Both the position numbers and the translations under genes were made by a program. DNA of 64,000 nt, taken from an uncultured Rivularia sp. GTDB lineage: Bacteria > Cyanobacteriota > Cyanobacteriia > Cyanobacteriales > Nostocaceae. Below the pieces are notes generated by a model. That model ran no database searches. It saw nothing but the letters and a program-made list of their open reading frames with translations, and was not told the origin of the DNA. This document shows, in pieces, positions 725 to 42,210 of this stretch. The stretch spans positions 640,001 to 704,000 of the forward strand of contig OY762007.1 in assembly GCA_963665115.1 (NCBI GenBank). Reading direction: 5' to 3'. Numbering within the stretch: position 1 is the first letter of the stretch; each line of letters opens with the position of its first letter.

Positions 725-1085
725 GTCTTCCTTCGTAAAATATTTTTTTAGGTAACATTAATGCGTCTGTCTATTTTGCTCGTCAAAGTTGAAAATAATT
801 ATAAATCACTTTTAGAGCCAAAATATGTAAAGTTAAATGGTGTATATTAAATCTACCTCTTATCTTATTATATATTTTCATCGCTATATTTATTCTTAAA
901 TAAATATTTAAGTTAGGGACAAAAATTGTTACAAAATAAATAAGTCTGTTCCAAGAAGTTAATCTGTATACATCATGCTGAAATTATATATTTCAAGAAT
1001 AAAATACTATTCTATAAAACAAATCTCCGTCATCAGAATTATGCGGACAGAAAAAGTTTTGGCTCTTCATAAGACAGACATTCAA

Positions 1086-1640
1086 TTATACGACCATTGC
1101 TTTTGAAGCATTATGTTGTGCATAATGCTGTACTAAAGAAATTACAGCAGTGACAACAGAAGATATTTCATTGGGATGAACTATCACAACAGGAGGTTGT
1201 GTACTGGCATCGTAATAACCCAAAGCTGCTATTACATTTTCCTCAGACCATGCACCAGAACAATCCGAATGAGTTAAACCAATAACCATAGGAATTTGCG
1301 CCCTCTGATTCATATAAGAAATTATTTTGCGAGCGTAACGAAATTCTCCTGGTCTATGAGCTGCTACCAGTAATATATAGGCATGAGCCTTACCAATTAA
1401 CATATCCCAGATAAAATTAAATCGTTCTTGACCTGGTGTACCGTAAAGATGCAGTGCCATATCTGGATTAAACTGCAATCTACCAAAATCAAAAGCAACA
1501 GTAGTTTTTTGCTTAAGTAATGAAGTTTCGTCTGTTGCTCTGCGGTCTGTATCTACAGTTTCAATTTCGCTAATCGAACGAATAAATGTAGATTTACCAG
1601 CCCCTACAGGACCAGTAACAACCATACGCATGATTTCCAT
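1086..1640 (-). CDS. Small ATP/GTP-binding protein (MglA/ATP_bind_1-like GTPase)
   Basis: P-loop GPVGAGKST, TTVAFDFG, and G3-like GTPGQERF. Likely start is MEIMR at 1640. Confidence 0.9.
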   Translation of the reverse strand: MEIMRMVVTGPVGAGKSTFIRSISEIETVDTDRRATDETSLLKQKTTVAFDFGRLQFNPDMALHLYGTPGQERFNFIWDMLIGKAHAYILLVAAHRPGEFRYARKIISYMNQRAQIPMVIGLTHSDCSGAWSEENVIAALGYYDASTQPPVVIVHPNEISSVVTAVISLVQHYAQHNASKAMVV

Positions 1641-1786
1641 AGAACTAAAAAAAATAGACAACTATTGTTGAAATAACCAGTTATCAAGAATATAAATTGA
1701 ACTTTCCTTTCGACCATCGATGCGATTCTAGATAAAGGCAACGGTTCAATATACCTATCTTTAAGGTAGTAACTGATAACTTATAT

Positions 1787-2025
1787 CATGTCCGGTTGAT
1801 TACTTGTGGTTATGTTTTCAAGGAATAATTTACTTAGTATTTCCTTTTTAGAAATAATAAATGCGAACATGATGAAAATGAATTTAATCGTTACCTTATT
1901 CCATTTTAAATTTTAGATTTTAGATTTAGAATTGTATTTGATCGGATTTAAAAAAGCTGATAAAATAATATTCTCCAAAATCGATTATCTATCATATTGA
2001 TGTTTTAGGTAACTCGACCGACATT
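1787..2025. mobile_element. MITE-like element with imperfect terminal inverted repeats and internal TTTAGAT tract
   Basis: CATGTCCGGTTGATTAC at the left end and GTAACTCGACCGACAT at the right end; non-coding interior. Confidence 0.4.
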
Positions 2026-2039
2026 AAGTTATTGAAAAA

Positions 2040-2411
2040 TTACATTAAAACTAACTTCAATTCTTCGGTAAGGCGCTTGATTTCTAACATCAATAAACCT
2101 TGCTTCGCTGATTGGCTCGCCAATACTAGCAATACTGCATCTTCGCCGCAGTTAGTTAATACGCCGTAGCCTTTATCGCCTTCAACGAAAATACGGTCTG
2201 TACTACCTCTAGATAATTCACTACCTATACGTTCACCCAAAGATAGCATCGCCGCAGACATCGCGGATACTTTCTCATCATCCATCGCACTTGGTAGCAC
2301 TGAAGCTAGAGATAAACCATCTGGAGAAACAAGTGTTGCTCCTTGAATATCACCAGTACCGCTGACGAAATTTTGCAGGATACTTTCAATCTTTCCAACA
2401 TTAATAGGCAT
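2040..2411 (-). CDS. Roadblock/LC7 (MglB-like) protein
   Basis: IQGATLVSPDGL...SAMSAAMLSLGERIGSEL roadblock signature; next to the GTPase gene. Confidence 0.9.
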   Translation of the reverse strand: MPINVGKIESILQNFVSGTGDIQGATLVSPDGLSLASVLPSAMDDEKVSAMSAAMLSLGERIGSELSRGSTDRIFVEGDKGYGVLTNCGEDAVLLVLASQSAKQGLLMLEIKRLTEELKLVLM

Positions 2412-2472
2412 TTATTTGTCCTTGTTATTTGTATGCAAAACTCAATTGAGCAACTCGATTAAAAAGCTGTAT

Positions 2473-2934
2473 TTATACTAAGGATGCAAATTCAAAAACG
2501 TCGTTACTTCCACCACGAAGCACGGATTCTGCATGAGTACCTTTCAAACGCTTACCAGTAATTTCTTCTAAAGCTCCCCAAACTGCACCAAGAGTAAATG
2601 TGCATTTACGAGGTGAACCTTCAGGCTCGTCAGCAGAACATAAGGTTTCTGAGGTAGAAACTTTAATAACATCAGTTTCTTCAACAATGCTTTCTATAAT
2701 AAGGAGTTTTGTTCCATTCTCACCTAATGCGAAAGCCATTTTATCCGCGATGCTAGCCCAGTCAACGCTGCTTCCTGTTAAGCCTAACTCTTTCGCGAGG
2801 TTTTTACCACGGCTGCGACCTGCTGCGATTAGGGCGATCGCAGTTGCTTTTTCTCCTAATGCTTCTTCCATTCCAGTAATAGCTGCTTTAAAGCAAATAA
2901 TACTGGAAAATTCTCCAAGTTTTGGACGTGACAT
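2473..2934 (-). CDS. V4R-like small-ligand/hydrocarbon-binding protein
   Basis: ETLCS...CTFTLGAVWGALE...H.ESVLRGG..DVFEF pattern typical of V4R folds. Confidence 0.65.
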   Translation of the reverse strand: MSRPKLGEFSSIICFKAAITGMEEALGEKATAIALIAAGRSRGKNLAKELGLTGSSVDWASIADKMAFALGENGTKLLIIESIVEETDVIKVSTSETLCSADEPEGSPRKCTFTLGAVWGALEEITGKRLKGTHAESVLRGGSNDVFEFASLV

Positions 2935-3413
2935 GATTAATTACCTATTAAGATAACTGCACTTCTGATTATCTTTGGGCAATTTTGAAACGCCAACAGA
3001 GTTTATACGCATAGAATAATCTGCACTTCAGTTTTTTGTATAAGTGAAAGTACCGGGTAAATAATGGCTTATAAGTTATTTCTTTAGTCATATTGCTACC
3101 AATAAGCTGTCATGCAATATGATTGTTAAGGCATAAAGCAATTTTGGAGATGCCTGCTTGAACTGACTTATAAACTTTGATATTTGCTCTAAAAGAATGC
3201 TTACTAAAAAACATTAAATATATATACTTGTAACATATATTAACATGATTAAACGAGATACTGTATCTGCGTTATCACTGATTTGTAGCTATTTTCAAGC
3301 CTTACCCCCAAACGATCTGCTGGAAATCAAAAAAGACCATAAATAAGTACTCACTTAAGTTATTGAAAGTAAAAAGGCAATGAGAATTCCCAATGCCCAA
3401 TTCCCAACTCAAC

Positions 3414-4325
3414 TTACTTTTTCGCTTCAATTGCTTCTCTTAGATTTCCCTGATATTGGGTGAGGAGCTTCGACGCTTGTTCCTTATTCAAACCAGTTTC
3501 ATGCATCAAAATTGCTAACTTGACCCATTTGCCGCTACGTTCAAGTAAAGTACCGGCAGCTTCGCGACTCAAATTAGTTAAATCCTGCAAAATTCGTAAA
3601 GCTCTATCTTGTAACTTTTGATTTGTAACCGCGACATCTACCATGCGATTGCCGTAAACCTTACCGAGTTTGACCATAACGCCGGTAGAAAGAATATTTA
3701 AAGCTAATTTTGTAGCGGTACCGGCTTTGAGGCGAGTAGAACCAGCTAATATTTCTGGCCCTGTAAGCAAGCGAATGTCTACGTCTGTTTCTACACTAAC
3801 TTGCTCGGATGGAACGCAAGCAATAAATACGGTAGTCGCGCCCCGGCTTTTCGCTGCCTTGATAGCACCATGAACGAAAGGAGTAGTTCCACCTGCGGTA
3901 ATACCCACTACCACATCAAGCTGGGTAATTTCTCGTTGAGCCATCGCAGCTTCGCCATCTTCGGCGCTATCTTCTAAGTCTTCAGAACTGCGTACTAATG
4001 CACCAGCACCACCAGCGATTATACCTTGGACTAATTCGGGGGGAGTGCAAAAAGTAGGTGGACATTCAGCAGCATCTAATACTCCCAATCGACCGGAAGT
4101 ACCTGCACCTACATAAAACAAGCGCCCGCCTTTTTCAAGACTTTGCGCTGACAAATCAATCGCTTCAGCCAAATTTTCTGCTTCCGCAGCAACCGCAGCG
4201 ACTGCCTTTGCGTCTTCACTATTAAATAGTTCGACAAATTCGACGCTACTTAGCCCGTCTAAATTAAGACTATCGGGATTAACTTGCTCGGTTAGTAAGT
4301 GTCCGCGCTCTTGCAAATCTGCCAT
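3414..4325 (-). CDS. murQ: N-acetylmuramic acid 6-phosphate etherase
   Basis: GAGTSGRLGVLDAAECPPTF and GPEILAGSTRLKAGTATK motifs. Likely start is MADLQ at 4325. Confidence 0.96.
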   Translation of the reverse strand: MADLQERGHLLTEQVNPDSLNLDGLSSVEFVELFNSEDAKAVAAVAAEAENLAEAIDLSAQSLEKGGRLFYVGAGTSGRLGVLDAAECPPTFCTPPELVQGIIAGGAGALVRSSEDLEDSAEDGEAAMAQREITQLDVVVGITAGGTTPFVHGAIKAAKSRGATTVFIACVPSEQVSVETDVDIRLLTGPEILAGSTRLKAGTATKLALNILSTGVMVKLGKVYGNRMVDVAVTNQKLQDRALRILQDLTNLSREAAGTLLERSGKWVKLAILMHETGLNKEQASKLLTQYQGNLREAIEAKK

Positions 4326-4377
4326 GTGTAAATTTATCCTTGAATAATGCCAAACCAATTTTGGATTTTAGAAGAAA

Positions 4378-4428
4378 AGACGTGATATAGTGCCCTGCCG
4401 GGCACGCTAGCGCTAACACGTCTCTACG
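4378..4428. repeat. Palindromic GACGT..ACGTCTCTAC repeat with a nested small dispersed repeat (about 4391-4416)
   Basis: TGCCCTGCCGGGCACGCTAGCGCTAA interrupts a repeat related to those at 16527 and 34812. Confidence 0.6.
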
Positions 4429-4488
4429 TTTAAATTCATACCCGGTTTTATCCGCAGAATTAATCTAAAATCACAAATACGAAGGATC

Positions 4489-4881
4489 TTACAACAATCC
4501 TTCCAGTTTGCGACGGATATTGTCTAGATCGGAATTCGAGATTTCTTCTTCTTGTGGAACTTTTGGTTCTTCTTGAGTCGAATCGTCCTCGCGCCAATCT
4601 AGATCCTCAACATTTTGTGGTGGAGGAACAACTAAACCGCCGTCAGTAGGAACGACTTCATAGTCATAATCAGCACTTTTACAGAAATGCTCTATTTCCG
4701 ACATATCCATTGGTTCGGGTGTGGGAGTAGGAAAATCTTGCGCTTCGAGCATTAAGGCATAGCGCGAGGCGTCATCTTCGGATTCAAACATCAGCACTTT
4801 ATTGCGATCGCCGATCCGAACTGTATGAATTCCCTCATTCTCTGTACGAGCATTAAAGATTAACACAAAAACGCGCCCCAT
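4489..4881 (-). CDS. DUF3110 family cyanobacterial protein
   Basis: VFVLIFNARTENEGIH...FESEDDASRYALMLEAQDF; C-terminal LDNIRRKLEGLL. Confidence 0.85.
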   Translation of the reverse strand: MGRVFVLIFNARTENEGIHTVRIGDRNKVLMFESEDDASRYALMLEAQDFPTPTPEPMDMSEIEHFCKSADYDYEVVPTDGGLVVPPPQNVEDLDWREDDSTQEEPKVPQEEEISNSDLDNIRRKLEGLL

Positions 4882-5307
4882 CTGTAATCACCTGTCCTTT
4901 TGTTTGGGTTCTATCCATATTAAAGTTCTAGGATGCAATTGGGGCAAAGTCGAGGTAATAATTCTCGCTTTCTTAACATTTTCCTGAATTCCCTTTTATT
5001 TTGACGTGAATGTAAAGAGTGTTGCTTTTACCCAAGTACCGTTTCAATTTTAATTATTTGGATTGTATTTTTTGAAATTACTGCTACAACTGGGTTAGAC
5101 CAACTTTATTCTCTGAAAAACACATAAAGTTCTAAATGTTCTAGTATTTCACCCAGAAAACGAGCAATTTTTTCCTACTCCCTACTCCTACTCCCCGTCA
5201 GGTTTGAGCGGCAGGTTATCCTAGAAAGGTTTACGGAGTTTTACGTCCGCGTTTAGGCCCCTTCTCGCTGTACTCTTTGCATCGGCTAAAGTCAGAAGTA
5301 ACATAAA

Positions 5308-8300
5308 ATGACCAATTCTTCTTCTACTGAAAAATATTCTAAATCTAAAAACCGCAAGCGTCTTTGGTTGCTGATACTTAGTCGCGGTGGATTGGCGTTT
5401 GGCGGATTGTTACTTGTAGGAATTTCTGTTGGTATTTGGCGATTACAAAGTTTTATTCGACAAGATTTAGCTCCTTTAGTAGAAAAAAATCTTACTAATA
5501 TTATCGATCGCCCGCTGGAGTTGGGTGAGGTAAAAGGTTTTACGCTTTCTGGAGTCAAATTTGGAGCTTCGGCGATTCCGGCAACAGCAGCAGACGCAGA
5601 CAACGTTAAAGCTGATGCTATAGAGGTTGGATTTGACCCGCTACAATTATTGTTTAATCGTAGATTAAAACTAGATGTCACTTTAGTCAACCCGGTTGGT
5701 TATGTCGATCGAGATGAGCAAGGGCGCTGGATTACTACTAATATCGTATTACCGGATGAACCAGGACCAATTGATATAGAATTAGAACAAGTCCGTTTGC
5801 GTAATGGAAATGTAGTATTAAAGCCTTTTGTCGAGAATGAGATTGCTTCTCCAAAGGTGGTTTTTTCCAAACTCAACGGTTACGCGAAATTTATTGATAA
5901 TTATCAAGTGGTTCGGTTTGAAGTCGAGGGACAACCTGGAAGTACTGGTAATCTTTCGGTAGGGGGAAAGGTAAATTTAAAAAATAAAGCAGGTAATTTA
6001 CAGATACAGGCAGCAGATTTATTCGCATCAGAAGTTACTCCCCTTGTCAAGCTACCAGTTAAGTTGAAAGGAGGAAAAATAAATGGGAATTTGCAGGTAA
6101 AGTTACCAACTGGGGAAAAACAGCCTTTATTATATGGCAACGCTCGCGTAGAAGGGCTAGATTTTCAGGTAGCCCAAATGCCGAAACCGCTGGTTAATTC
6201 TCAAGGAAATTTGCAGTTTGATGGTACGAAAGTAAAACTAAATGATGTAGTTACCAGTTACGGTAAAATTCCTTTGAGTGGTGGCGGCATCATTGATTTT
6301 AATCAAGGTTACAATTTGACTGCTCGCGTCAATGCAGTCAGCGTCAACGATACTTTACAAACTCTGGAGATTCAATCACCTTTAGCCGTGGGTGGAGTTG
6401 TCAAAGGCGATTTGACGATGACGGGAGCGATTACTCAACCAGTCATTTCCGGTACCGTTGCCACGGTTAAACCTGGAATTGTCGATAAAGTTAAATTAAA
6501 AACGGCTAGCGGTAAATTTGCTTTTGTCACAGCAGATTCAACCGTTACTTTTACAGATATTCGCGGTACTGCTGCTGTCGGTGGAGAAGTTCGAGGAGCG
6601 GGTAAAATCTTAATTGGCGACGATAGTATTGGCAGAAAAACCCAAGTTAATTTTAATTTTCGCACGGGTAATGCACCAGGAGATAGTTTAGCCAGAATTT
6701 ACAATATTCCTACAAGTTCATTTCAAGTTGGTAGAGTTGCAGCGACAGCTAATTTGAGCGGTACACCAGAAACTCTTCGCACTCTGGTAAAATTTAATGC
6801 TCCTCAAGCGACTTATCCAGCTACGGGGGAAGTAATTGTCAATCCCAATCGCAGTCTCTCATTCCGTAACGTAGCCCTTGCTGTAGCTGGCGGTACGGCT
6901 TTAGCAACAGCAAGTTGGAATCAACAGCAGTGGCAAGCTGTAGCGAATACCAAGGGTATCAAAATTAATCGGTTTGTCAGTAAGGAACAGTTAGAAAAGG
7001 TAAATCTCGATCGCGCTAGTTTTAACGGAAAAGTTATTGTTTCGGGTAGTTCAGCACCCTTTAAAATTGGTCAAATTCGTACTGAAAATGCCGATATCAA
7101 AGTTGCTGGGGGTAAGGTTGCAGTTAATTCTGTTAAGTTTGACGAGCAAAAGTTTTCTGCTGAGTTGGTAGCTTCTGGGGTTCAAGTAGGACGTTTATTA
7201 AAAGATGCGAGCTTACCTATAAATGGTCCTTTGAGCGGTAAGTTTCAGGTATCGGGCAATACAGATAATTTTGATGCTAAAACTTTGCAAATTCAAGGAT
7301 ATGCAAGGTTAGCGGCTGCCGGGGGAAGGATTACAGCGAATAATATCAAAGTGAAAGACGGTATTTATTTAGCTAGAGTCAGAGCAAATAACCTACAGTT
7401 GCAGCAATTGTCACAGCAAATACCGAAGTCGTTTAAAGGCAGATTGACGGGGGAATTTGATGTTGCTGGATCTTTGGATTCCTTGCAACCCGAAAGTATA
7501 GTAGCCACTGGTAAAGCTGAGATAAAAACGAATGGTGGTGTTATTGCAGCTAATAATATTCAAGTCAAAGATGGAGTTTATTTAGCTCAAGTAGCAACAA
7601 ATAATGTCCAGATTCAAGATTTGTCCGAACAGCTTCCCAAGTCGTTTGCGGGAAGATTAACAGGTAAATTTAACCTTGCTGGCTCCTTGGATTCTTTTGC
7701 ACCGGAAAGCTTAATTATTTCGGGTAAAGCAAATTTAAATACTGTTGCTGGTAGAATTTCCGCTTCAGATATCGAGTTTGCCAGGGGACAATATCGAGCC
7801 AAAGTTGGAGTGAATAATATAGATGTACGTCAATTATCACCACAAATTCCTCAATCGTTTCCAGGCAAGTTGACGGGAAATTTTAATATTGCTGGCTCTA
7901 CAAAATCTTTTGAAGAATTAACCGTATCTGGGAATGGTTTTGTTAATGCGGCAGGTGGGAGGATTTCAGCGTCGGAGATTGCGGTTTATAACGGCAGATA
8001 TCAAGCTAAGGTTGATGCTAATAAGTTATTGGTAAGTCAGTTATCGCCGAAAATTCCTCAATCGTTTCGGGGTAGATTGACGGGTAGGTTTAATATTGCA
8101 GGTTCGTTAAATTCCTTGGAAGATGTCAATTTATCGGGGAATGCTGCGATCGATGCTGGTGATGGTAAGGTAACAGCGTCGGATATTTTTGTTAATAACG
8201 GCAAGTATCAAGCCAAAGTTGCTGCGGATAATCTATTAGTAAGCCAATTATCAGCGAAAATTCCTCAATCGTTTGGAGGAAGATTGACAGGTAGGTTTAA

Positions 8301-32027: not shown

Positions 32028-33071
32028 TTATTTAAAATAATCATCAACTAACTTCTGCGACGCTTGATGTAACTTTACCATTATGTAGTTCTGATTTTCT
32101 ACAGATAAAGCGTTAAAAATAGTTTCATATTCTTCGTTGAAGCTTTCTAATACATCTTTTTCCAAAAATTCAACTAATTGATTACTTTTCTCTATTTCCC
32201 GATTTGTAACTCTACCGAATTTAGAAATCACATTATCTAGCCTTGTCACAGTTACTAAAACAAGCATCTCCTGACATAATTCATCTTCAAAAGTTAATTC
32301 TCTATTTTCACAAGTCCATTTCTGTGCTTGATGGTAGCGATTATCTTCTGCAAATTCCGGAATCTTATTTTTAATAATTGGACGAATTCTACCTTTACAA
32401 GTTTCTATATAAATCGATTTAACTGGTTTAATTACAACTCCTTCCGCTTTATTTACTTGCGGTAACGGAGGTAAATTTAAAATTGCCGGAATTGTAGATT
32501 CAAATTCAATATTATATGCTGCCGCTTCTTCATATTTACCGATAAATAAAGGTTTTGCAGCCATCATTTCTACTCGACCAAATAATTGCAGCGCTATATC
32601 ATAATCTAAATAAACTTTTTCAGTATTATTTTCATTTTCTACAACAGCAATATCGAAACCACAATACTCTATCTTAGGGGAATAATACACACCCGTTTGT
32701 ATAGCTTGTATCCCAGAAACTGGAGTTACTTCTAGATGTGGATATTCTCCGCCAAATAATTCGCCATAAATAAATATTTTGTGTAAATTGTTTTTTTCAA
32801 GTTGCAAAAATTGGAATATTTTCCGAGCTTGTGAAATTAATTTATCTTGCAACAACTGATAACCGAAAAAATCCTCCGTACTATCTAAAAATTTCTTTCT
32901 TTTAGCAAATTTAACTTCTAAACCATCCGTCATAATCCCAAAGTTGGCACCGTGAATCTTTTCTGTCACTACCCAATCGGTTTTCTTCAAAATACGGTAA
33001 TCGGATTCTGTTAAATTCCATTTATTGATATTTTCGGGTATCTTTTCATACGCGATGTATTTGTTATCCAT
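32028..33071 (-). CDS. Rnl2-family RNA ligase
   Basis: Nucleotidyltransferase motifs TEKIHGANF, YGELFGG, FDI, AEGVVIKP, KNK. Confidence 0.85.
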   Translation of the reverse strand: MDNKYIAYEKIPENINKWNLTESDYRILKKTDWVVTEKIHGANFGIMTDGLEVKFAKRKKFLDSTEDFFGYQLLQDKLISQARKIFQFLQLEKNNLHKIFIYGELFGGEYPHLEVTPVSGIQAIQTGVYYSPKIEYCGFDIAVVENENNTEKVYLDYDIALQLFGRVEMMAAKPLFIGKYEEAAAYNIEFESTIPAILNLPPLPQVNKAEGVVIKPVKSIYIETCKGRIRPIIKNKIPEFAEDNRYHQAQKWTCENRELTFEDELCQEMLVLVTVTRLDNVISKFGRVTNREIEKSNQLVEFLEKDVLESFNEEYETIFNALSVENQNYIMVKLHQASQKLVDDYFK

Positions 33072-34861: not shown

Positions 34862-35071
34862 ATGCAAGCTGATAAAATACCAGAACAAAGATTAATCGAA
34901 AAAATACGTCAACTAGTTCCAGAACAAGTCGTATTAGTTGAAAATTTTATTGATTCCTGATCTGGGCAGAATGAAGATTATAACCTTACCCTAGCTGCTA
35001 CCAAGCTTTCCGAACCAGCACTGCGAAAAATTTGGGATAATCCTGAAGACACTGAATATGACCAATTATAG
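34862..35071 (+). pseudogene. Antitoxin pseudogene (partner of a PemK/MazF toxin) with an internal stop
   Basis: MQADKIPEQRLIEKIRQL...FIDS*SGQNE...LSEPALRKIWDNPEDTEYDQL; stop overlaps the toxin start. Confidence 0.7.
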
Positions 35072-35262
35072 TCATTCCAATTAATTTCCGTAGTGCGTTA
35101 GCGAAGCGTGTCTGAAAGACAAGCATCTTGCTCGCTCGGTACTAGCGAGCAAGATGCTCGCACTACAAATCAATCGGTTTCTATTTAGAATCGCTATATA
35201 AATTCGGCGAGGTTGTTTTAGTACCCTTTCCCTTCACAGACCAAACTACCACTAAAAAACCA
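35058..35262 (+). pseudogene. PemK/MazF-like toxin remnant, interrupted by a MITE and truncated
   Basis: Removing the MITE restores MTNYKFGEVVLVPFPFTDQTTTKKP. Confidence 0.75.
35067..35200. mobile_element. MITE (copy of 19946-20055) carrying a nested 24-nt insertion at 35098-35121
   Basis: Near-identical to the first copy apart from the inserted TTAGCGAAGCGTGTCTGAAAGACA. Confidence 0.88.
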
Positions 35263-35324
35263 AATAATTCAACTAAAAACAATATAAAATACCTAACAAA
35301 ATAACGCGCTTCATCCAAAAATAG

Positions 35325-35400
35325 ATGTTGGGTTACGACGCGATATAAATCATAAAGTTAATCATTATTTTTTCGTGCGTCTAACCCAACCTACAACTAC
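35325..35400. repeat. REP-like element, left of the STAND-CHAT module
   Basis: TGTTGGGTTACGACGC...GTGCGTCTAACCCAACCTAC; same-orientation copy at 40778-40855. Confidence 0.8.
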
Positions 35401-35524
35401 AACTTAAAGGGAAGTTGTGGGTATTTAAAATAGTGTAATTTTACGGTAAATATTAAACTCAACCTGTATCTAAATTTGAAATAGTAGCGTTTAATTTAAG
35501 TAAATTACTCGTGAGGCAGGTTGA

Positions 35525-38500
35525 ATGAGCGATAACGGCATGGAAGGAGATAATCGCAGCGCCAGTATTGGAGAAAGTGCTGATAGTAGTGCTATTCAAA
35601 CTGGTGATGGCAACACTGCGACTATCACCAATTACTATTACTATTACCGTGAAGTAAATACGGTAGTATCTGTTGAATCTACTGACGCTAAAGATGATAA
35701 CCTTCTTTGCCCTTATCGCGGTTTATTTCACTTTGGCCCCGATCATGCCGAATATTTCTTTGGACGTGAGGTATTTGTAGAAGAACTATTTACTGCTACT
35801 CAAACCCGTAATTTTATACCTTTATTAGGTGCTTCGGGAAGCGGTAAATCTTCGGTGGTTTTGGCGGGATTAGTGCCAAAATTACAAAAAGAAGGCAACT
35901 GGTTGTTTACTCATTTTCGTCCTGGTAAAGATCCTTTTCATGCTTTGGCTTTAGCGTTGATTCCGCTTTATACAAAAAATTTGAATGATACCGAAAAGAT
36001 AATTCAAGCACGTCAGTTATCACAATCCCTTAGTGATGCTAAAAATCCTCTTCCTCTAGGTGATATATTTGCTCAAATTCACCAAAATAATCCTACATAT
36101 CGGGTGTTGTTGATTGCCGACCAATTTGAAGAAATTTACACTTTATGCGCGGATAATAAAGTTCGTCATCGTTTTTTAGATGCTTTATTAGAAACTTTTC
36201 CATCTTCCTCTACTCAATCGCAATATAATCGCGTGCTAGTTGCAACCATGCGAGCAGATTTTTTGGGCAATGCTTTGGAATATCCCTCTTTTAGAGATGT
36301 ATTGAAAGATGATATCAAGCTTAGTTCGATGAATCATGATGAACTAACATCGATAATTGCTAAACCTGCTGAAAAATTGAAAGTGACGTTTGAATCGGGA
36401 TTAGTAGAGCGCATTTTGGATGATGTAAAAGATGAGCCGGGGAATTTACCTTTATTAGAATTTGCGTTAACGGAGTTGTGGAAGCAGCGAAAAGATAGAC
36501 AGTTAACTCATGCAGCTTATCAAAAAATAGGTAAGGTACAAGGTGCATTGGCTCGTCATGCAGATTGGAATTATGGTAATTTGGATGCCACCCAAAAAGA
36601 GCAGGTAAGGCGGATTTTTATTCAATTAGTGCAACCCGGTGAAGGCACGTTGGATACGCGAAGATTGGCGACGAAAGCCGAATTGGGTGAAACAAGCTGG
36701 AATTTGGTGAAACAGTTGGCGGATAACCGATTAGTAGTTACCAATCAAAATGCTGCCAACCAAGAAACAGTAGAAGTTGTTCATGAAGCGTTGATTAGCA
36801 ATTGGGATGAGTTTCGGCGATGGATGAATGAAGATCGTAGCTTTCGGGCTTGGCAAGAAAGGCTAAGGTTTGCAATGGCTCAATGGCAAAATAATCAAGC
36901 AGATAAAGAGCTATTGCTGCGGGGTAAAGTGTTAGCAGAAGCGGAAGAAAAGCTGAAGCAACGGCGAGATGAATTGAGTGCAGATGAGCAAAAATTTATT
37001 CAAGCCAGTGTTGCACTGCGTCAACGTCGTAAGGGGCTAATTTACTCGGGTTTGGGTGTGGCTGGGAGTATCTTCTTAATCTGGATCGGGTTTTTGGGTT
37101 GGCGGGATTATACAACTCCGGGGCAGTTGACTCACATTCGCTGGAAATTAACTGATGCTAGCGAGCTAATAACAAATCCTAGTTATCAATCAAAAGCGGC
37201 GATCGCCTTTGCTAAAAATGAAAATTTTGATCGAGCCTTTGAAATTACTGACAAAATTAAAGATTCCCATTTCAAAGTAGATGCCTTAAGAGCCATAGCC
37301 GAAGTATATGCCAAAATATCAGAACCGCAAAAAGCGGCTTCATTGCTCGAACAAGCAATCAAATCTGCCGACAACATTTCCTATTCCCGTAACAAAGCCT
37401 CAGCCTTAAGTGCCATAGCCGAAGTAATTGCCAAAATATCAGAACCGCAAAAAGCGGCTTCATTGCTCGAACAAGCAATCAAATCTGCCGAAAACATTTC
37501 TGCCACAAACATTCCCGTTTCCCAATTCAAAGCCTCAGCTTTAATAGCCATAGCCGAAGTAATTGCCAAGATATCAGAACCGCAAAAAGCCGCCTCTTTG
37601 CTCGAACAAGCAATCAAATCTGCCGACAACATTTCTGATTCCGATCATAAAGTAAAAGCCTTAAGTGCTATAGCCGAAGTATATGCCAAGAGGGAGCAAC
37701 CGCGAAAAGCCGCCTCTTTGCTCGAACAAGCAATCAAATCTGTCGACAATATGTCCTATTCCTATCACAACCACAACTCCTATTACAAAGCCTCAGCTTT
37801 AATAGCCATAGCCGAAGTAATTGCCAAGATATCAGAACCGCAAAAAGCCGCCTCTTTGCTTGAACAAGCAATCAAATCTGCCGACAACATTTCTGATTCC
37901 GATCATAAAGTAAAAGCCTTAAGTGCTATAGCCGAAGTATATGCCAAGAGGGAGCAACCGCGAAAAGCCGCCTCTTTGCTCGAACAAGCAATCAAATCTG
38001 TCGACAACATTTCCGATTCCGATGACAAAGCAAAAGCCTTAAGTGCCATAGCCGAAGTATATGCCAAGAGGGAGCAACCGCAAAAAGCCGCCTTGTTGCT
38101 CGAACAAGCAATCAAATCTGCCAACAACATTTTCAGTTCCAGAAAAAAATCCTATGCTTTAAGTGCTATTGCTGGAGTATATGCCAAGCTCTCAAAACCA
38201 CAAAAAGCCGCTTCTTTGCTCGAACAAGCAATCAAATCTGCCGATAACATTTCCGATTACCATTACAAAGGCTATGTTTTAAGAACCATAGCCGAAGTAA
38301 TTGCCAAGATATCAGAACCGCAAAAAGCGGCCTCTTTGCTCGAACAAGCAATCAAATCTGCCGACAACATTTCCCAATCCGGTGAAAAAGCCGAAGCATT
38401 AGGAGCCATAGCCGAAGTAATTGCCAAGATATCAGAACCGCAAAAAGCGGCCTCTTTGCTCGAACAAGCAATCAAATCTGCCGACAACATTTCCCAATCC

Positions 38501-38671
38501 GGTGACAAAGCCGAAGCCTTAAGTGCCATAGCCGAAGTCGCAGCAAAATATAAAAACTGGGGATTAGCACTTGAAGTTACGAATAAATGTCGCAGCGAAT
38601 ATTGTAAAGTGAAGTCGTTGACAAAGGTTTTAACAATTCATGCCGAGCAGAAGAATCCGGAATTGAAATAA
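35525..38671 (+). CDS. NLR-like protein: N-terminal amyloid/RHIM-like motif - STAND NTPase - TM - ten 40-aa TPR-like repeats
   Basis: CPYRGL, Walker A GASGSGKSS, Walker B LLIADQFEE, PGNLPLLEFAL, TM GLGVAGSIFLIWIGFLGW, 120-bp tandem repeats. Confidence 0.88.
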   Translation: MSDNGMEGDNRSASIGESADSSAIQTGDGNTATITNYYYYYREVNTVVSVESTDAKDDNLLCPYRGLFHFGPDHAEYFFGREVFVEELFTATQTRNFIPLLGASGSGKSSVVLAGLVPKLQKEGNWLFTHFRPGKDPFHALALALIPLYTKNLNDTEKIIQARQLSQSLSDAKNPLPLGDIFAQIHQNNPTYRVLLIADQFEEIYTLCADNKVRHRFLDALLETFPSSSTQSQYNRVLVATMRADFLGNALEYPSFRDVLKDDIKLSSMNHDELTSIIAKPAEKLKVTFESGLVERILDDVKDEPGNLPLLEFALTELWKQRKDRQLTHAAYQKIGKVQGALARHADWNYGNLDATQKEQVRRIFIQLVQPGEGTLDTRRLATKAELGETSWNLVKQLADNRLVVTNQNAANQETVEVVHEALISNWDEFRRWMNEDRSFRAWQERLRFAMAQWQNNQADKELLLRGKVLAEAEEKLKQRRDELSADEQKFIQASVALRQRRKGLIYSGLGVAGSIFLIWIGFLGWRDYTTPGQLTHIRWKLTDASELITNPSYQSKAAIAFAKNENFDRAFEITDKIKDSHFKVDALRAIAEVYAKISEPQKAASLLEQAIKSADNISYSRNKASALSAIAEVIAKISEPQKAASLLEQAIKSAENISATNIPVSQFKASALIAIAEVIAKISEPQKAASLLEQAIKSADNISDSDHKVKALSAIAEVYAKREQPRKAASLLEQAIKSVDNMSYSYHNHNSYYKASALIAIAEVIAKISEPQKAASLLEQAIKSADNISDSDHKVKALSAIAEVYAKREQPRKAASLLEQAIKSVDNISDSDDKAKALSAIAEVYAKREQPQKAALLLEQAIKSANNIFSSRKKSYALSAIAGVYAKLSKPQKAASLLEQAIKSADNISDYHYKGYVLRTIAEVIAKISEPQKAASLLEQAIKSADNISQSGEKAEALGAIAEVIAKISEPQKAASLLEQAIKSADNISQSGDKAEALSAIAEVAAKYKNWGLALEVTNKCRSEYCKVKSLTKVLTIHAEQKNPELK
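37270..38545 (+). repeat. Intragenic 120-bp tandem repeat array (10 units)
   Basis: GAACAAGCAATCAAATCTG recurs every 120 bp, with two longer units of 135 and 138 bp. Confidence 0.95.
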
Positions 38672-38749
38672 TTGGTAATTGGTAATGGGTAATGGGTAAT
38701 GGGTAATTGGTAATGGTGAACTGTAATCTTGTTACAAATTTTTCTGCTA

Positions 38750-39139
38750 CTAGCTTAATGTTTGCAACCAAGAAACACTCGTGAGATTGCTATCAACTGT
38801 AGCTAATATAAAATTGTAGTAAACTGCTGTAGCTGCAATAAATCTATCAGCTGGATCTTGGTGTGGTAGTTGAATCTGGCGACTTAAAATAGCAATTTGA
38901 TTAACAAGGGGAGCTTCAATAATTTCTAGAGTTTGTAAGGCTAAATTAATCCATGTAACCGCATCAGGTTGTAAAGAAATTCGTCCTTTCTCTGCTAAAA
39001 TTAACGTTTCCCAGATACTAATAGGACTAAGCCACAGCTCGGTTGTTTCTTCTGCAATTACGGTTTGGAGATTGGTAGATAGACGCTTGTCACCCAGGAG
39101 ATACCAAAGCCAAATATGGGTATCTAATAAAAGTTTCAC
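38750..39139 (-). CDS. vapC: VapC/PIN domain toxin
   Basis: LLLDTHIWLW, SPISIWE, HQDPADRFIAATA, LATVD. Confidence 0.92.
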   Translation of the reverse strand: MKLLLDTHIWLWYLLGDKRLSTNLQTVIAEETTELWLSPISIWETLILAEKGRISLQPDAVTWINLALQTLEIIEAPLVNQIAILSRQIQLPHQDPADRFIAATAVYYNFILATVDSNLTSVSWLQTLS

Positions 39140-39372
39140 TGAAGCACTTCCCAGGTGTTAAGGGGAACTGCTGGAGTTATTAAATCTCCCAAAATTTCCC
39201 CGCTTCCTTTCATTACTCCAAAAGTTGCACGTTTGGCTTGAGTTGTCGCAGGAGATATGATTACTAATGGTTTGCCCTCATGGATAACAGTTAAGGGTGT
39301 TTTAGTTAGTTGTATTTCTGTAAATAATTTCTGAATATTTTCGGGTAATTCGTTGATACTAATTTGTTGCAT
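39136..39372 (-). CDS. Phd/YefM-like antitoxin
   Basis: 78 aa overlapping the toxin start (GTGA); PLTVIHEGKPLVIISP...FGVMKGSGEILGDLITP. Confidence 0.8.
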   Translation of the reverse strand: MQQISINELPENIQKLFTEIQLTKTPLTVIHEGKPLVIISPATTQAKRATFGVMKGSGEILGDLITPAVPLNTWEVLQ

Positions 39373-39427
39373 TTTTGGGTTTAATAGCTCCTAACTATAT
39401 GTATGATATTGCAAAAATCCTCTGCTT

Positions 39428-39580
39428 ATAGCGGTTTGCAAGTAGATGAGGTATGGAACTAAATATAAAAATCTTGTGGGATGGGCATCCCTGCCCGTCC
39501 AAATGTACTTCACCAATATAAGATGTGCTGCGATTGCTTCACTTCGTTCGCAATGACAACTTTTTTTGCATAAGTCCTAA
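39428..39580. mobile_element. Composite MITE/REP remnants
   Basis: TATAGCGGTT terminus, GGATGGGCATCCCTGCCCGTCC palindrome, GCGATTGCTTC..CGCAATGAC, and a TAAGTCCT end resembling 63834-63959. Confidence 0.55.
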
Positions 39581-39606
39581 AAACCATATTAATAAAAAAT
39601 CCCACC

Positions 39607-40722
39607 ATGAAAAAAATCCTTATCCTCTCCGCAAACCCCAAAAACACAAGGAGCCTCCGCTTAGATCAAGAAATACGGGAAATCAAAAACACGCTGCAAC
39701 TATCTCCCCATCGAGACGAATTTGAAATCATCGCAGGATCTGCGGTACAAGTAGACGATTTAACCCGCTTTCTATCTCACCATCAACCTACAATGGTTCA
39801 CTTTTCCGGACATGGTACTGGTACTGATGGATTAATCTTGGAAGATAATTCTGCACAACAACAACTTGTCAGTACTCAAGCTTTAGCAAAATTATTTGAT
39901 TTATTTCAACAACAGGTTGAATGTGTTTTACTCAACGCTTGTTATAGCCAAGCACAAGCTACAGCAATTCACCAACACATTGATTGCGTTGTAGGGATGA
40001 ATGAAGCAATTGGAGATGAGGCTGCAATTCAATTTAGCATTGGCTTTTATACGGCTTTATTTGCTGGCAGAGATTATCAAAATAGTTTTCACATGGGTTG
40101 TGCTGCCATTGATTTACAGGGAATTCCTGAATATGCAACCCCAGAAATAAAAATTCGACGGCGAAGTTATCAAACCGAAGAGCCAATAAATTCTGTAAAA
40201 TCTGACGAGAATAATGATTTAAATAACGATAACAAAGACGGACAAAACCCTTCAATTACTGTCGGTGGTCGCGTTATTGATAGTGTAATGATAATGGGCG
40301 ATCGCAAAAGTGCAGATAACCGTTCGGTTGCTGTTGGTAATGATGTGATTGGTGGTGTAATTGTAACGGGAGATAGCAATAGTGCAAAGGTAAATTATCA
40401 AAAAACTACTAACTTACCCGCACCAGAAACCATCAATATCCAAGCAGAAATTAACGCTTTGCGTGAAATAATAACGAAACTAGAAACCTCAGATCGTCCT
40501 AAAATTGATAATGCTTTTGAAGATGCTCAAGAAGAGTTAAATAAACCACAGCCAGATAAAGATGAAGTGGGTGAAGCATTAAACCGAGCCTTGAAATATG
40601 CCAAGAAAGCTGAAGGGTTTGCTGGTGCGATAGAAAAACTCCAGCCTCATTTAAGTAAAATTACTGATTTGTTGGGTGATAATTGGCATAAATTATTAGG
40701 TTTTGTTGGTTTGACAGTTTGA
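39607..40722 (+). CDS. CHAT (caspase-like) protease with doubled beta/amyloid-like motif and C-terminal helical domain
   Basis: KILILSANP..LRLDQEIREI; catalytic HFSGHG and LNACYS; motif pair at about aa 213-262. Confidence 0.88.
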   Translation: MKKILILSANPKNTRSLRLDQEIREIKNTLQLSPHRDEFEIIAGSAVQVDDLTRFLSHHQPTMVHFSGHGTGTDGLILEDNSAQQQLVSTQALAKLFDLFQQQVECVLLNACYSQAQATAIHQHIDCVVGMNEAIGDEAAIQFSIGFYTALFAGRDYQNSFHMGCAAIDLQGIPEYATPEIKIRRRSYQTEEPINSVKSDENNDLNNDNKDGQNPSITVGGRVIDSVMIMGDRKSADNRSVAVGNDVIGGVIVTGDSNSAKVNYQKTTNLPAPETINIQAEINALREIITKLETSDRPKIDNAFEDAQEELNKPQPDKDEVGEALNRALKYAKKAEGFAGAIEKLQPHLSKITDLLGDNWHKLLGFVGLTV

Positions 40723-40777
40723 TATTTTTATTTTTTTGATGGAAAGTGCAGTTAGCAATCGTAAATTCACAATACTG

Positions 40778-40855
40778 ATGTTGGGTTACGACGCAATGTA
40801 AATTTATCGGTTGATGGTCATATATTTTTGTGCGTCTAACCCAACCTACTACTAC
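40778..40855. repeat. REP-like element, right of the STAND-CHAT module
   Basis: Same termini and orientation as 35325-35400. Confidence 0.8.
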
Positions 40856-40938
40856 TACCACTATTCCAAAATTTATTTCAAAAAACTTTTAAACTTTCCG
40901 GAATTGACATCTGACTATCGGTATCCTATCTTAGATGA

Positions 40939-41036
40939 GCTAGTTATTGCTTGTTAACTATATTTAACTGGGGAACTATGGCCCCTCTTCTTATATGAAA
41001 CCTTCAAAAACCCGGTCGTTATGACTGGGTTTTTGA
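40939..41036 (+). ncRNA. Candidate ~95-nt sRNA or leader RNA
   Basis: TTGACA(40904)-N17-TATCTT promoter; AAAAACCCGGTC/GACTGGGTTTTT terminator; no ORF. Confidence 0.45.
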
Positions 41037-41127
41037 TGTTTAAAGACTAGGTAATAAAAAATATTCAGCAATTCTAACTGGTTGTGATACCCTATCTGAA
41101 ATTAGCTACTATATTTAAGTATTCAAG

Positions 41128-42210
41128 ATGACAAAATTAAAGGTAGGTTTACTTTTTGGCGGTGTATCTGGAGAACATGAAGTTTCTATTGTTTCAGCAA
41201 AAGCAATTTCGGAAGCTCTAACTGCTGAACAAAACGCCAATAAGTACGAATTATTGCCTTTTTATATTAAAAAAGATGGTTCTTGGCAAAGTCCCGATGT
41301 TGCACGTCAGGTTTTATCATCGGGAGAAGCATTATCAAGTGAATCTAAACCCAATCTTTGGCAATTCCCAGCAGAAGCGGAAACAATTGATGTATGGTTT
41401 CCCATTCTTCACGGCCCAAATGGGGAAGATGGTACTATTCAAGGATTGCTGAGTTTGATGCAAGTTCCTTTTGTGGGTTCCGGGGTGCTGGGTTCATCTG
41501 CCGGTATGGATAAAATTGGCATGAAATCCATATTTGCTCAAGCCGGATTGCCGCAAGTTAAGTATATGGCTTTAACTAGAGAGCAAGTTTGGTCAAATCC
41601 TTGTGTCTTTCCAAAACTTTGCGATGACATCGAGCAAACTTTGGGTTATCCTTGTTTCGTTAAACCCGCTAACTTGGGTTCATCCGTCGGGATTGCCAAA
41701 GTGCGATCGCGCTCGGAATTAGAAGCCGCTTTGGATAGTGCAGCCAGTTATGACCGTAGAATTATTGTAGAAGCTGGAGTCACAGCGAGAGAAGTTGAAT
41801 GCGCTGTTTTGGGCAATGACAGCCCCAAAGCTTCGACCGTCGGTGAAATCACTTACGAAAGTGACTTCTATGACTACGAAACTAAATATACTAGTGGCAA
41901 AGCAGATTTACTGATTCCCGCACCGTTACCAAATGGTGTAATTGAGCAAATTCAGGAGCAAGCAATACAGGCATTCACCGCTCTTGACTGCGCCGGTTTA
42001 GCACGAGTAGATTTCTTCTATGTTGAAGCTACAGGAGAAGTTTTAATTAATGAAATCAATACTTTGCCAGGTTTTACTGCAACAAGTATGTATCCGCAAC
42101 TTTGGGCAAGCAGTGGCGTTTCGTTCCCCAAGTTAGTCGATCGACTTGTTCAATTTGCAATAGAAATAAATTCAGTTCCAGAAAATAGCCAGGTAGCTTT
42201 AAGCACCTAA
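41128..42210 (+). CDS. ddl: D-alanine--D-alanine ligase
   Basis: [47 protein letters not shown]. Confidence 0.97.

Follow-up and report, generated by a model that had tools for sequence, protein, structure and literature searches.

How does a STAND receptor that carries no enzymatic effector domain of its own pass on its signal? The question is raised by a stretch of 64,000 nucleotides from an uncultured Rivularia sp. (assembly GCA_963665115.1, contig OY762007.1, positions 640,001 to 704,000), referred to below as the window. Here, the gene of a 1048-residue NLR-like (NOD-like receptor-like) protein of the nSTAND1 clade, the receptor, is followed by the gene of a 371-residue CHAT-domain protein, the effector. 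A first-pass annotation of the sequence had proposed that the two are coupled by a short motif present at the N-terminus of the receptor and, in the effector, right after the protease domain. The analysis described here leads us to assign a probability of about 0.6 to the following reading: the nSTAND1-TPR receptor and the CHAT protein form a conserved two-gene pair, in which a motif resembling the bacterial amyloid signalling motif BASS6 would template amyloid-like polymerisation of the effector, likely activating its protease and/or the helical domain that ends the protein (CT). From the sequences we infer that amyloid forms, that the protease is activated and that the cell dies, and our doubt mostly concerns whether the assembly is amyloid or finite, and which domain executes the response.

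Receptor and effector share a motif found nowhere else in the genome

The motif of the receptor and the second of two effector copies align without gaps at 11 of 26 identical positions; both this count and the motif coordinates given in the first-pass annotation proved exact, and the additional pseudo-copy that it had seen on the CHAT protein is present at residues 213-232. The two effector copies align to each other with a score of 52. Smith-Waterman alignment of receptor residues 1-62 with effector residues 158-371 gives a score of 62. Shuffling the receptor N-terminus yields a mean of 29.3 (standard deviation 5.0, maximum 53), and 62 was reached in 0/2000 shuffles, as was the case when both sequences were shuffled (0/2000). 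With the motif alone shuffled, its score was reached in 0/5000.

A motif scattered over unrelated proteins had been named as one outcome that would speak against coupling. A hidden Markov model (HMM) of the three motif copies was run over the 42,422 stop-to-stop open reading frames (ORFs) of the 8.69-Mb genome: it retrieves the receptor and the effector only, the next ORF having an E-value of 0.15. The three copies match their own HMM by construction, and the informative part of the scan is that nothing else matches.

Across 243 motif instances, the composition is dominated by G (15.2%), S (13%), V (10.7%), N (10.4%), Q (9.8%), I (8.7%) and T (8%), with K (1.0%), L (0.9%) and P (0.6%) being rare. 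Such a G/N/Q/V/I-rich, K/P/L-poor composition is the bias described for BASS motifs in the available text of Dyrka et al. (10.1101/2020.01.06.895854). The match of the receptor leader to the Pfam family Curlin_rpt is sub-threshold and not significant (E 0.055).

The pairing recurs across filamentous cyanobacteria

A search with the effector returned 2200 database proteins at E≤0.001. The nearest 120 are full-length relatives with 53-100% identity and come from filamentous cyanobacteria, e.g. Calothrix, Rivularia, Tolypothrix, Nostoc, Scytonema and Microcoleus (organism names as given by the sources). In every one of the 120, the motif lies between CHAT and CT, as a single copy in 107 and as two copies in 13. 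The window effector belongs to the two-copy minority. The HET-s-like arrangement noted earlier, two repeats on the effector against one on the receptor, thus holds in the window but is a minority form, only 13 of the 120 homologues having two copies.

Gene neighbourhoods were surveyed by scanning one genome per species; 80 loci were kept, of which 22 encode a CHAT-motif-CT protein. An nSTAND1 NLR with a matching leader adjoins the CHAT-motif-CT gene in 12 of these 22 loci, upstream in 7 and downstream in 5, with 11 of the 12 pairs co-oriented. Nine of the 22 loci are uninformative, the contig ending 0.1-3.1 kb upstream, or 0.8 kb downstream, of the CHAT gene. A separate genome search added four pairs (L095-L098, one of them convergent), bringing the further CHAT loci with a pair to 16. 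An additional pair, in which the NLR is split, comes from the window's own family (L093). The intergenic distances range from -37 to 1657 bp, with 30-300 bp being usual among the CHAT loci and four distances being exactly 30 bp, and lie mostly between 7 and 330 bp when CHAT pairs are taken together with the pairs of NLRs and small motif+CT effectors described below. Within the first ~35 residues, the paired NLRs read (D/E)(D/N)RS(I/V)x(I/V)... G(D/N)xN..., often followed by ITITNYYYRE, and the motif leader is conserved in the type-A NLRs of relatives. The linkage of receptor and CHAT protein through a shared motif, as originally claimed, is therefore borne out by its recurrence in 16 further CHAT loci and in 7 loci with a small effector.

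The first-pass annotation had also suggested a search for co-occurrence using a profile of the motif. A profile built exclusively from 17 single-copy effector-side motifs places neighbouring NLRs at 9 of the top 10 ranks among 1970 non-CHAT ORFs. On this effector-only profile, which derives from other species, it is the window NLR motif that ranks best (28.1 bits, E 1.2e-7). In 24 pairs, leader and effector motif align with a mean score of 53.8, as against 21.3 for shuffled leaders (standard deviation 4.6, maximum 40); 20 of the 24 exceed 40.

Close CHAT homologues also occur with other Q/N/G-rich motifs, several of which are then followed by other helical tails (L018 3927-7431; L022, L023, L025-L033, L035-L039, L041, L048, L056, L065, L069, L072, L074 and L078). 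Some of these look like listed BASS5 or BASS7 sequences. At L018, such a motif, on another CHAT protein just upstream, recurs on the Q/N-rich leader of the adjacent nSTAND1 NLR, which is the NLR nearest to the CHAT-motif-CT gene of that locus. These motifs are candidates for further amyloid-motif families on CHAT effectors.

The motif resembles listed BASS6 sequences

The motif had been labelled RHIM-like. We rejected this label in its strict sense: the (I/V)-Q-(I/V/L/C)-G core tetrad is missing, the receptor having IQTG and the effector copies IVTG and IMG, and no match to Pfam RHIM (PF12721) was obtained at E≤10 for the receptor leader, the motif region of the CHAT protein or the small motif+CT proteins. 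Judged from sequence, the motif resembles BASS6 instead, and not the RHIM-related BASS3.

Dyrka et al. 2021 (PMC8086366, supplement 1) provide lists of effector-side BASS motifs sorted by cluster. Cluster C09, which the README of that archive equates with BASS6, shares the core RS[IV]A[IV]GG..x.G..[IV].TGD with the window motif. A count by eye gives 15 of 23 positions in agreement between effector copy 2 and one listed C09 sequence, and the words NRSV, IITGD, IQTGD and ITTGD are present in C09 sequences. The exact words of 5-7 residues TNYYY, QNRSV, TGDSNTA, DNRSI and EDRSV are absent from the BASS data files of the same archive. A likeness to the RHIM/BASS3/fungal PP group does exist: the signalling logic is alike and the tail of the window motif, (I/V)Q.GD.NT...F, is by eye like that of listed BASS3 sequences, whereas its first half matches BASS6.

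Receptor

In the receptor, Pfam identifies nSTAND1 at residues 63-461 (E 2.5e-119) and TPR_12 (E 3.1e-36). Nothing in Pfam matches N-terminal of nSTAND1, in keeping with the initial observation of a STAND protein without an N-terminal enzymatic effector. There is no NACHT or NB-ARC match either (Pfam, E≤0.01), nSTAND1 and TPRs being found instead, and the tripartite NLR-like layout is retained. The translation shows both Walker motifs intact, with GASGSGKSS as Walker A and LLIADQFEE as Walker B. The TPR-like units are near-identical to each other, with variation concentrated at unit positions ~13-21. A heptamer tandem repeat, TAATGGG x 4.6, covers the stop codon of the receptor gene and the sequence just past it (38669-38700).

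Both nSTAND1 proteins of the window, the receptor and an "all-in-one" paralogue described below, contain a strongly hydrophobic segment of ~22 residues between the NTPase and the repeat array. Its mean Kyte-Doolittle score in a 19-residue window is 1.87 in the receptor and 1.96 in the equivalent segment of the paralogue, values that constitute a prediction only. The sequence of this segment suggests a membrane anchor, or even a placement of the sensor repeats across a membrane.

Effector and its CHAT domain

Pfam CHAT matches residues 7-156 of the effector (E 6.4e-12). The His/Cys dyad had been described as intact (HFSGHG, LNACYS), and indeed H69 and C112 are invariant in 25/25 aligned homologues. 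Among the 120 nearest homologues, the His motif is kept in 117 and the Cys motif in 119, indicating that the protease is under selection. The top Foldseek match of the domain is the SAVED-CHAT filament 8tl0 (E 4.7e-12, 24% identity, root mean square deviation 3.0 over 187 columns), followed by caspase-4, MALT1 and legumain. Sequence and fold matches point to a caspase-like fold with a His-Cys dyad, and the domain is a predicted protease.

Residues 186-274, flanked by the confidently modelled CHAT domain and helical bundle, have AlphaFold pLDDT values below 50, so that the motif region is predicted to be disordered in the monomer. The motif is internal in the effector: it spans residues 213-262 out of 371, with the 105 residues of CT coming after it.

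CT and the motif+CT proteins

CT contains many invariant charged residues and is better conserved than the motif. It belongs to no Pfam or NCBIfam family, Pfam returning noise only at E≤10 (Spore_III_AB at 0.018 and others). Foldseek finds no match in the PDB at E≤1e-3, and the highest Z in a wide structure search with VIA-align was 7.9, obtained for generic helical bundles and within the range common for helical models. Two sets of candidates were considered and are retained as leads only: the PADLOC candidate PDC-M14B, a weak match (E 4.4e-5, 21 bits), and in the ESM Atlas two unnamed clusters (0.92 and 0.90), DUF4404 (0.89) and TCAD2 (0.88).

CT is present once in the window genome, in 19/401 sampled cyanobacterial genomes and in 1/17 of the further genomes sampled from the window's family. 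CT is also borne by 344 small proteins of 52-196 residues, typically 142. In 111 of the 120 listed among these 344, the motif lies directly N-terminal of CT. Nine short-frame CT loci were examined: a motif-bearing nSTAND1 NLR lies 7-479 bp downstream in 7 of them, and no conserved third gene was found in the nine. The motif+CT unit also occurs at the C-terminus of pentapeptide/transmembrane (TM) proteins, of a WD40 protein and of TIR+CHAT proteins. The pentapeptide-repeat proteins are of ~725-750 residues, with several hydrophobic segments and motif+CT at the C-terminus (L091 6995-9244, minus strand; L092 3593-5770, plus strand; L090). Because CT occurs beyond CHAT proteins, we regard motif+CT as the constant unit, CHAT being one of several N-terminal additions. 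CT may represent a new type of death effector.

The intergenic cassette and the neighbouring genes

The effector gene had been placed about 1 kb downstream of the receptor gene in the same orientation; the measured gap is 935 bp and the genes are indeed co-oriented. What the first-pass annotation did not mention is the content of this gap, a PIN-domain toxin gene and a small antitoxin-like ORF, both on the opposite strand (Table 1). A near-identical antitoxin-like ORF sits in the NLR-CHAT gap of L054, where both genes are open. L093 has no such insert, the 3' fragment of its NLR gene ending at 6217 and the CHAT ORF running from 6254. A promoter and terminator scan of positions 35000-41200 returned fewer sites than shuffled sequences and was uninformative.

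The "all-in-one" CHAT-nSTAND1-TM-WD40 paralogue is encoded 3.5 kb upstream of the receptor. Its N-terminal 385 residues match CHAT (E 3.6e-15) and its NTPase is 49% identical to that of the receptor. An Rnl2-type RNA ligase gene (32028-33071, minus strand; Pfam RNA_ligase E 7.2e-21, T4_Rnl2_C E 4.2e-17) adjoins it on the same strand, 47 bp from its start codon.

Table 1 Features of the receptor-effector locus and of the paralogue upstream, in window coordinates
Feature	Position	Strand	Basis
"All-in-one" paralogue, CHAT-nSTAND1-predicted TM-WD40, 1534 aa	27377..31981	-	Pfam nSTAND1 E 1.1e-116, WD40
Predicted TM segment of the all-in-one protein	aa 829-850	-	Kyte-Doolittle
Receptor ORF of 1048 aa, with motif leader, then nSTAND1 NTPase, predicted TM helix and TPR array	35525..38671	+	ORF and Pfam
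Receptor-side BASS6-like motif, aa 9-34, DNRSASIGESADSSAIQTGDGNTATI, then TNYYYYYRE	35549..35626	+	Alignment, shuffle tests
nSTAND1 NTPase domain, aa 63-461	35711..36907	+	Pfam PF20703, profile positions 1-378 of 379
Predicted TM helix, aa 504-526, GLIYSGLGVAGSIFLIWIGFLGW, between NTPase and repeats	37034..37102	+	Kyte-Doolittle
~10 tandem 120-nt (40-aa) TPR-like repeats	37283..38538	+	Tandem Repeats Finder: period 120, 10.2 copies
PIN-domain toxin (VapC-like), between receptor and effector genes	38750..39139	-	Pfam PIN E 1.9e-14
Antitoxin-like small ORF of 78 aa that overlaps the start of the PIN gene	39136..39372	-	Weak Pfam PhdYeFM match, E 0.0031, below curated cut-off
Effector ORF of 371 aa, with predicted CHAT protease, linker predicted to be disordered, motif in two copies and helical CT	39607..40722	+	ORF, homologues, domain map
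Predicted CHAT caspase-like protease domain, aa 1-185	39607..40161	+	Pfam CHAT
Predicted catalytic His69, in HFSGHG	39811-39813	+	Alignment of homologues
Predicted catalytic Cys112, in LNACYS	39940-39942	+	Alignment of homologues
Effector motif pseudo-copy 1, aa 213-232	40243..40302	+	Profile match aa 212-236
Effector motif copy 2, aa 237-262	40315..40392	+	Alignment, profile
CT, conserved ~100-residue five-helix bundle, aa ~267-371	40405..40719	+	AlphaFold pLDDT 87

Mechanistic model and its alternatives

The model that we favour would run as follows. Binding of a ligand by the hypervariable TPR array would lead to NTP-dependent oligomerisation of the receptor, and the N-terminal motifs clustered in this way would form a cross-beta or beta-solenoid nucleus. 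This nucleus would convert the effector's motif, present in one or two copies, and the ensuing polymerisation would gather CHAT domains and activate them by proximity. Polymerisation may also alter the conformation of the adjacent CT bundle, a role that we consider because CT is the sole effector domain in the two-gene systems made of a motif+CT protein and an NLR. The outcome would be regulated cell death or abortive defence within the multicellular filament, in which the cell dies or stops growing. Activation of CHAT by assembly fits the fact that its top solved match, 8tl0, is titled as an activated filament.

A number of observations weigh against this model. Aligned with their own partners, the 24 pairs score barely higher than when crossed with foreign ones (53.8 vs 49.3; permutation p 0.0009, the related loci not being independent), and the own partner has a median rank of ~10 of 24. 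There is thus little sign of pair-specific co-evolution, and since own partners score little above foreign ones, the motif family appears as one shared type and not as many private ones. At one locus (L018/L094), the 10 kb to each side of a CHAT-motif-CT gene hold no matching NLR. At L093, the NLR gene (925-6217) is interrupted by an opposite-strand ORF of 555 residues, probably a mobile element, while the CHAT-motif-CT gene stays open. Co-transcription of the window genes is unlikely because the toxin-antitoxin cassette separates them. BASS effectors as described carry the motif C-terminally, and here it is internal. The likeness to BASS6 was judged by inspection of listed sequences and shared words, not by a profile score, and the fibril and prion experiments in the available text of Dyrka et al. 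(10.1101/2020.01.06.895854) cover BASS1 and BASS3, none of them BASS6. Finally, CT has no recognisable function and no TM-like segment, its most hydrophobic stretch being the last 11 residues (Kyte-Doolittle 1.27).

Which other explanations could account for the locus? Although the two stretches are short and G/S/N-rich, a chance likeness between low-complexity sequences with no functional link is refuted by the shuffles, none of 2000 reaching the observed score, by the uniqueness of the motif in the genome and by the conservation of the pairing across many species. Nor do we give much credit to the view that the window pair is uncoupled or decaying, the toxin-antitoxin insertion having parted the two genes so that CHAT acts alone or not at all. 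The 935-bp gap with its opposite-strand cassette and the split NLR of L093 are what one would expect on that view; yet both window ORFs are intact, with Walker motifs and catalytic dyad present, no NLR-side motif scores higher than that of the receptor, and at L054 both genes are open with an antitoxin-like ORF lying between them. This makes decay very improbable. A finite, non-amyloid complex deserves more weight, even if we consider it unlikely: the shared motif would then be a homotypic adaptor, for instance forming a short beta-sheet hetero-oligomer on the NLR wheel, and would recruit the effector stoichiometrically, much like the Death-like or EAD adaptors proposed in other nSTAND1 systems. 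Indeed, nSTAND1 systems are described, in the available text of PMC8195603, as coupling via shared adaptor domains such as EAD8, and the single motif copy in 107/120 effectors and the restriction of the published fibril work, as far as the available text of Dyrka et al. goes, to BASS1 and BASS3 would suit an adaptor. However, the composition, length, predicted disorder and BASS6 likeness of the motif fit the amyloid-signalling class, and the related BASS1 and BASS3 motifs are reported by Dyrka et al. to have given fibrils and prions experimentally.

Somewhat more probable than a finite complex, though still doubtful, is the proposal that CT is the primary executioner. Here, motif+CT would be the ancestral effector, which amyloid folding would convert directly in the manner of HeLo in HET-S, and CHAT a later accessory add-on with a role in, e.g., processing or a second output; this is compatible with the amyloid-templating model. 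The abundance of the small motif+CT proteins, the NLR gene next to most short-frame loci with no conserved third gene, the fusions to pentapeptide/TM, WD40 and TIR+CHAT proteins, and the stronger conservation of CT relative to the motif all argue for it. Against it stand a CT that has neither a predicted membrane segment nor a known toxic fold, and a CHAT dyad kept in nearly all homologues.

Relation to known systems

NLR-to-effector amyloid templating is, in the literature available to us, established in fungi and proposed in bacteria, mostly for Bell effectors. The available text of Dyrka et al. 2020 (10.1101/2020.01.06.895854) defines BASS1-10 as motifs common to Bell effectors and adjacent NB-ARC/NACHT NLRs of multicellular bacteria, reports that BASS1 and BASS3 formed fibrils and behaved as prions, and describes BASS1 and BASS6 as having two or three pseudo-repeats on the effector side where the NLR has one. 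It also reports effectors of the CHAT, TIR2, alpha/beta-hydrolase and guanylate-cyclase types that carry BASS motifs, as well as "all-in-one" NLRs carrying the same effector domains. The novelty that the first-pass annotation implied for a CHAT effector therefore falls away, and "NLR - amyloid motif - CHAT" is an arrangement of a published kind; the CHAT association is repeated in the portions available to us of a review (PMC7889193) and of the BASS11 preprint (10.1101/2024.11.07.622273), the Bab/Agp system of the latter being, according to its available text, the one case of phage defence reported so far.

The present family has much in common with BASS6 pairs: a short motif rich in G/N/Q/V/I occurs at the N-terminus of the NLR and again on the protein encoded by a neighbouring, mostly collinear gene, the core reads RS[IV]A[IV]GG...G..[IV].TGD, and one to three effector pseudo-repeats stand against one on the NLR. 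Like BASS pairs, it is found in multicellular cyanobacteria, CHAT is a named occasional effector of BASS systems, and all-in-one paralogues exist, as in the window. The CHAT example of Dyrka et al. (Fig. S5) may or may not be the present family. The differences are several. The BASS screen used NB-ARC/NACHT NLRs, whereas the NLR here is of the nSTAND1 clade; the usual BASS effector is Bell, which this one does not appear to be; and in place of a C-terminal motif, we find an internal (CHAT-motif-CT) or N-terminal (motif-CT) one, followed by CT, an undescribed helical domain. In Bell and HeLo proteins, the bundle is N-terminal of the motif and has a hydrophobic N-terminal helix, whereas the five-helix bundle CT lies on the C-terminal side of the motif.

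NWD2/HET-S, with its HRAM motif and HeLo effector, offers a parallel to the window in architecture: as described in the sources available to us, a single motif on the N-terminus of a STAND receptor faces a neighbouring effector with two pseudo-repeats beside a helical bundle, and the motif region, disordered there before conversion, is here predicted to be disordered. However, the helical domain of HET-S is N-terminal of the motif and not C-terminal, there is no additional protease, and two repeats are a minority here (13/120). SAVED-CHAT of type III CRISPR systems, the closest solved CHAT structure, is without amyloid motif, NLR or CT. Its filament is driven by the SAVED sensor domain.

Kaur et al. 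2021 (PMC8195603), who defined the nSTAND1 clade, describe it in the available text with globular adaptor domains. The nSTAND1/EAD systems of that work share with the present one the NTPase clade, the separate effector gene (caspase, trypsin or TIR) and the repeat sensors; they differ in that coupling there is via shared globular adaptor domains and here via a 26-residue amyloid-type motif. Our literature search found no paper tying nSTAND1 to amyloid motifs. Three aspects appear to be new, namely the nSTAND1 receptor clade for an amyloid-type motif, the motif's internal position within the effector, and the CT helical bundle after it, for which Pfam and NCBIfam have no family. The main added value of the locus lies in the motif+CT module together with the tractable read-out that CHAT provides.

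Implications

We tentatively propose, at somewhat less than even odds, that motif+CT is an amyloid-triggered executioner module of inverted topology, motif first and bundle second, deployed alone or on CHAT, TIR-CHAT, WD40 and pentapeptide proteins and wired to nSTAND1 receptors. Polymerisation of CHAT-motif-CT would then switch on a bacterial caspase, in a prokaryotic counterpart of the filament-driven caspase activation of inflammasomes and necrosomes. The locus and its relatives bring to light a conserved helical domain that over 340 small proteins carry, and would extend amyloid-type coupling to the nSTAND1 clade, so far described with globular adaptors. They form a large and clean two-gene cyanobacterial family whose output is a predicted caspase-like protease with a nearest solved relative that is titled as an activated filament; amyloid activation of a bacterial caspase is therefore directly testable in this family.

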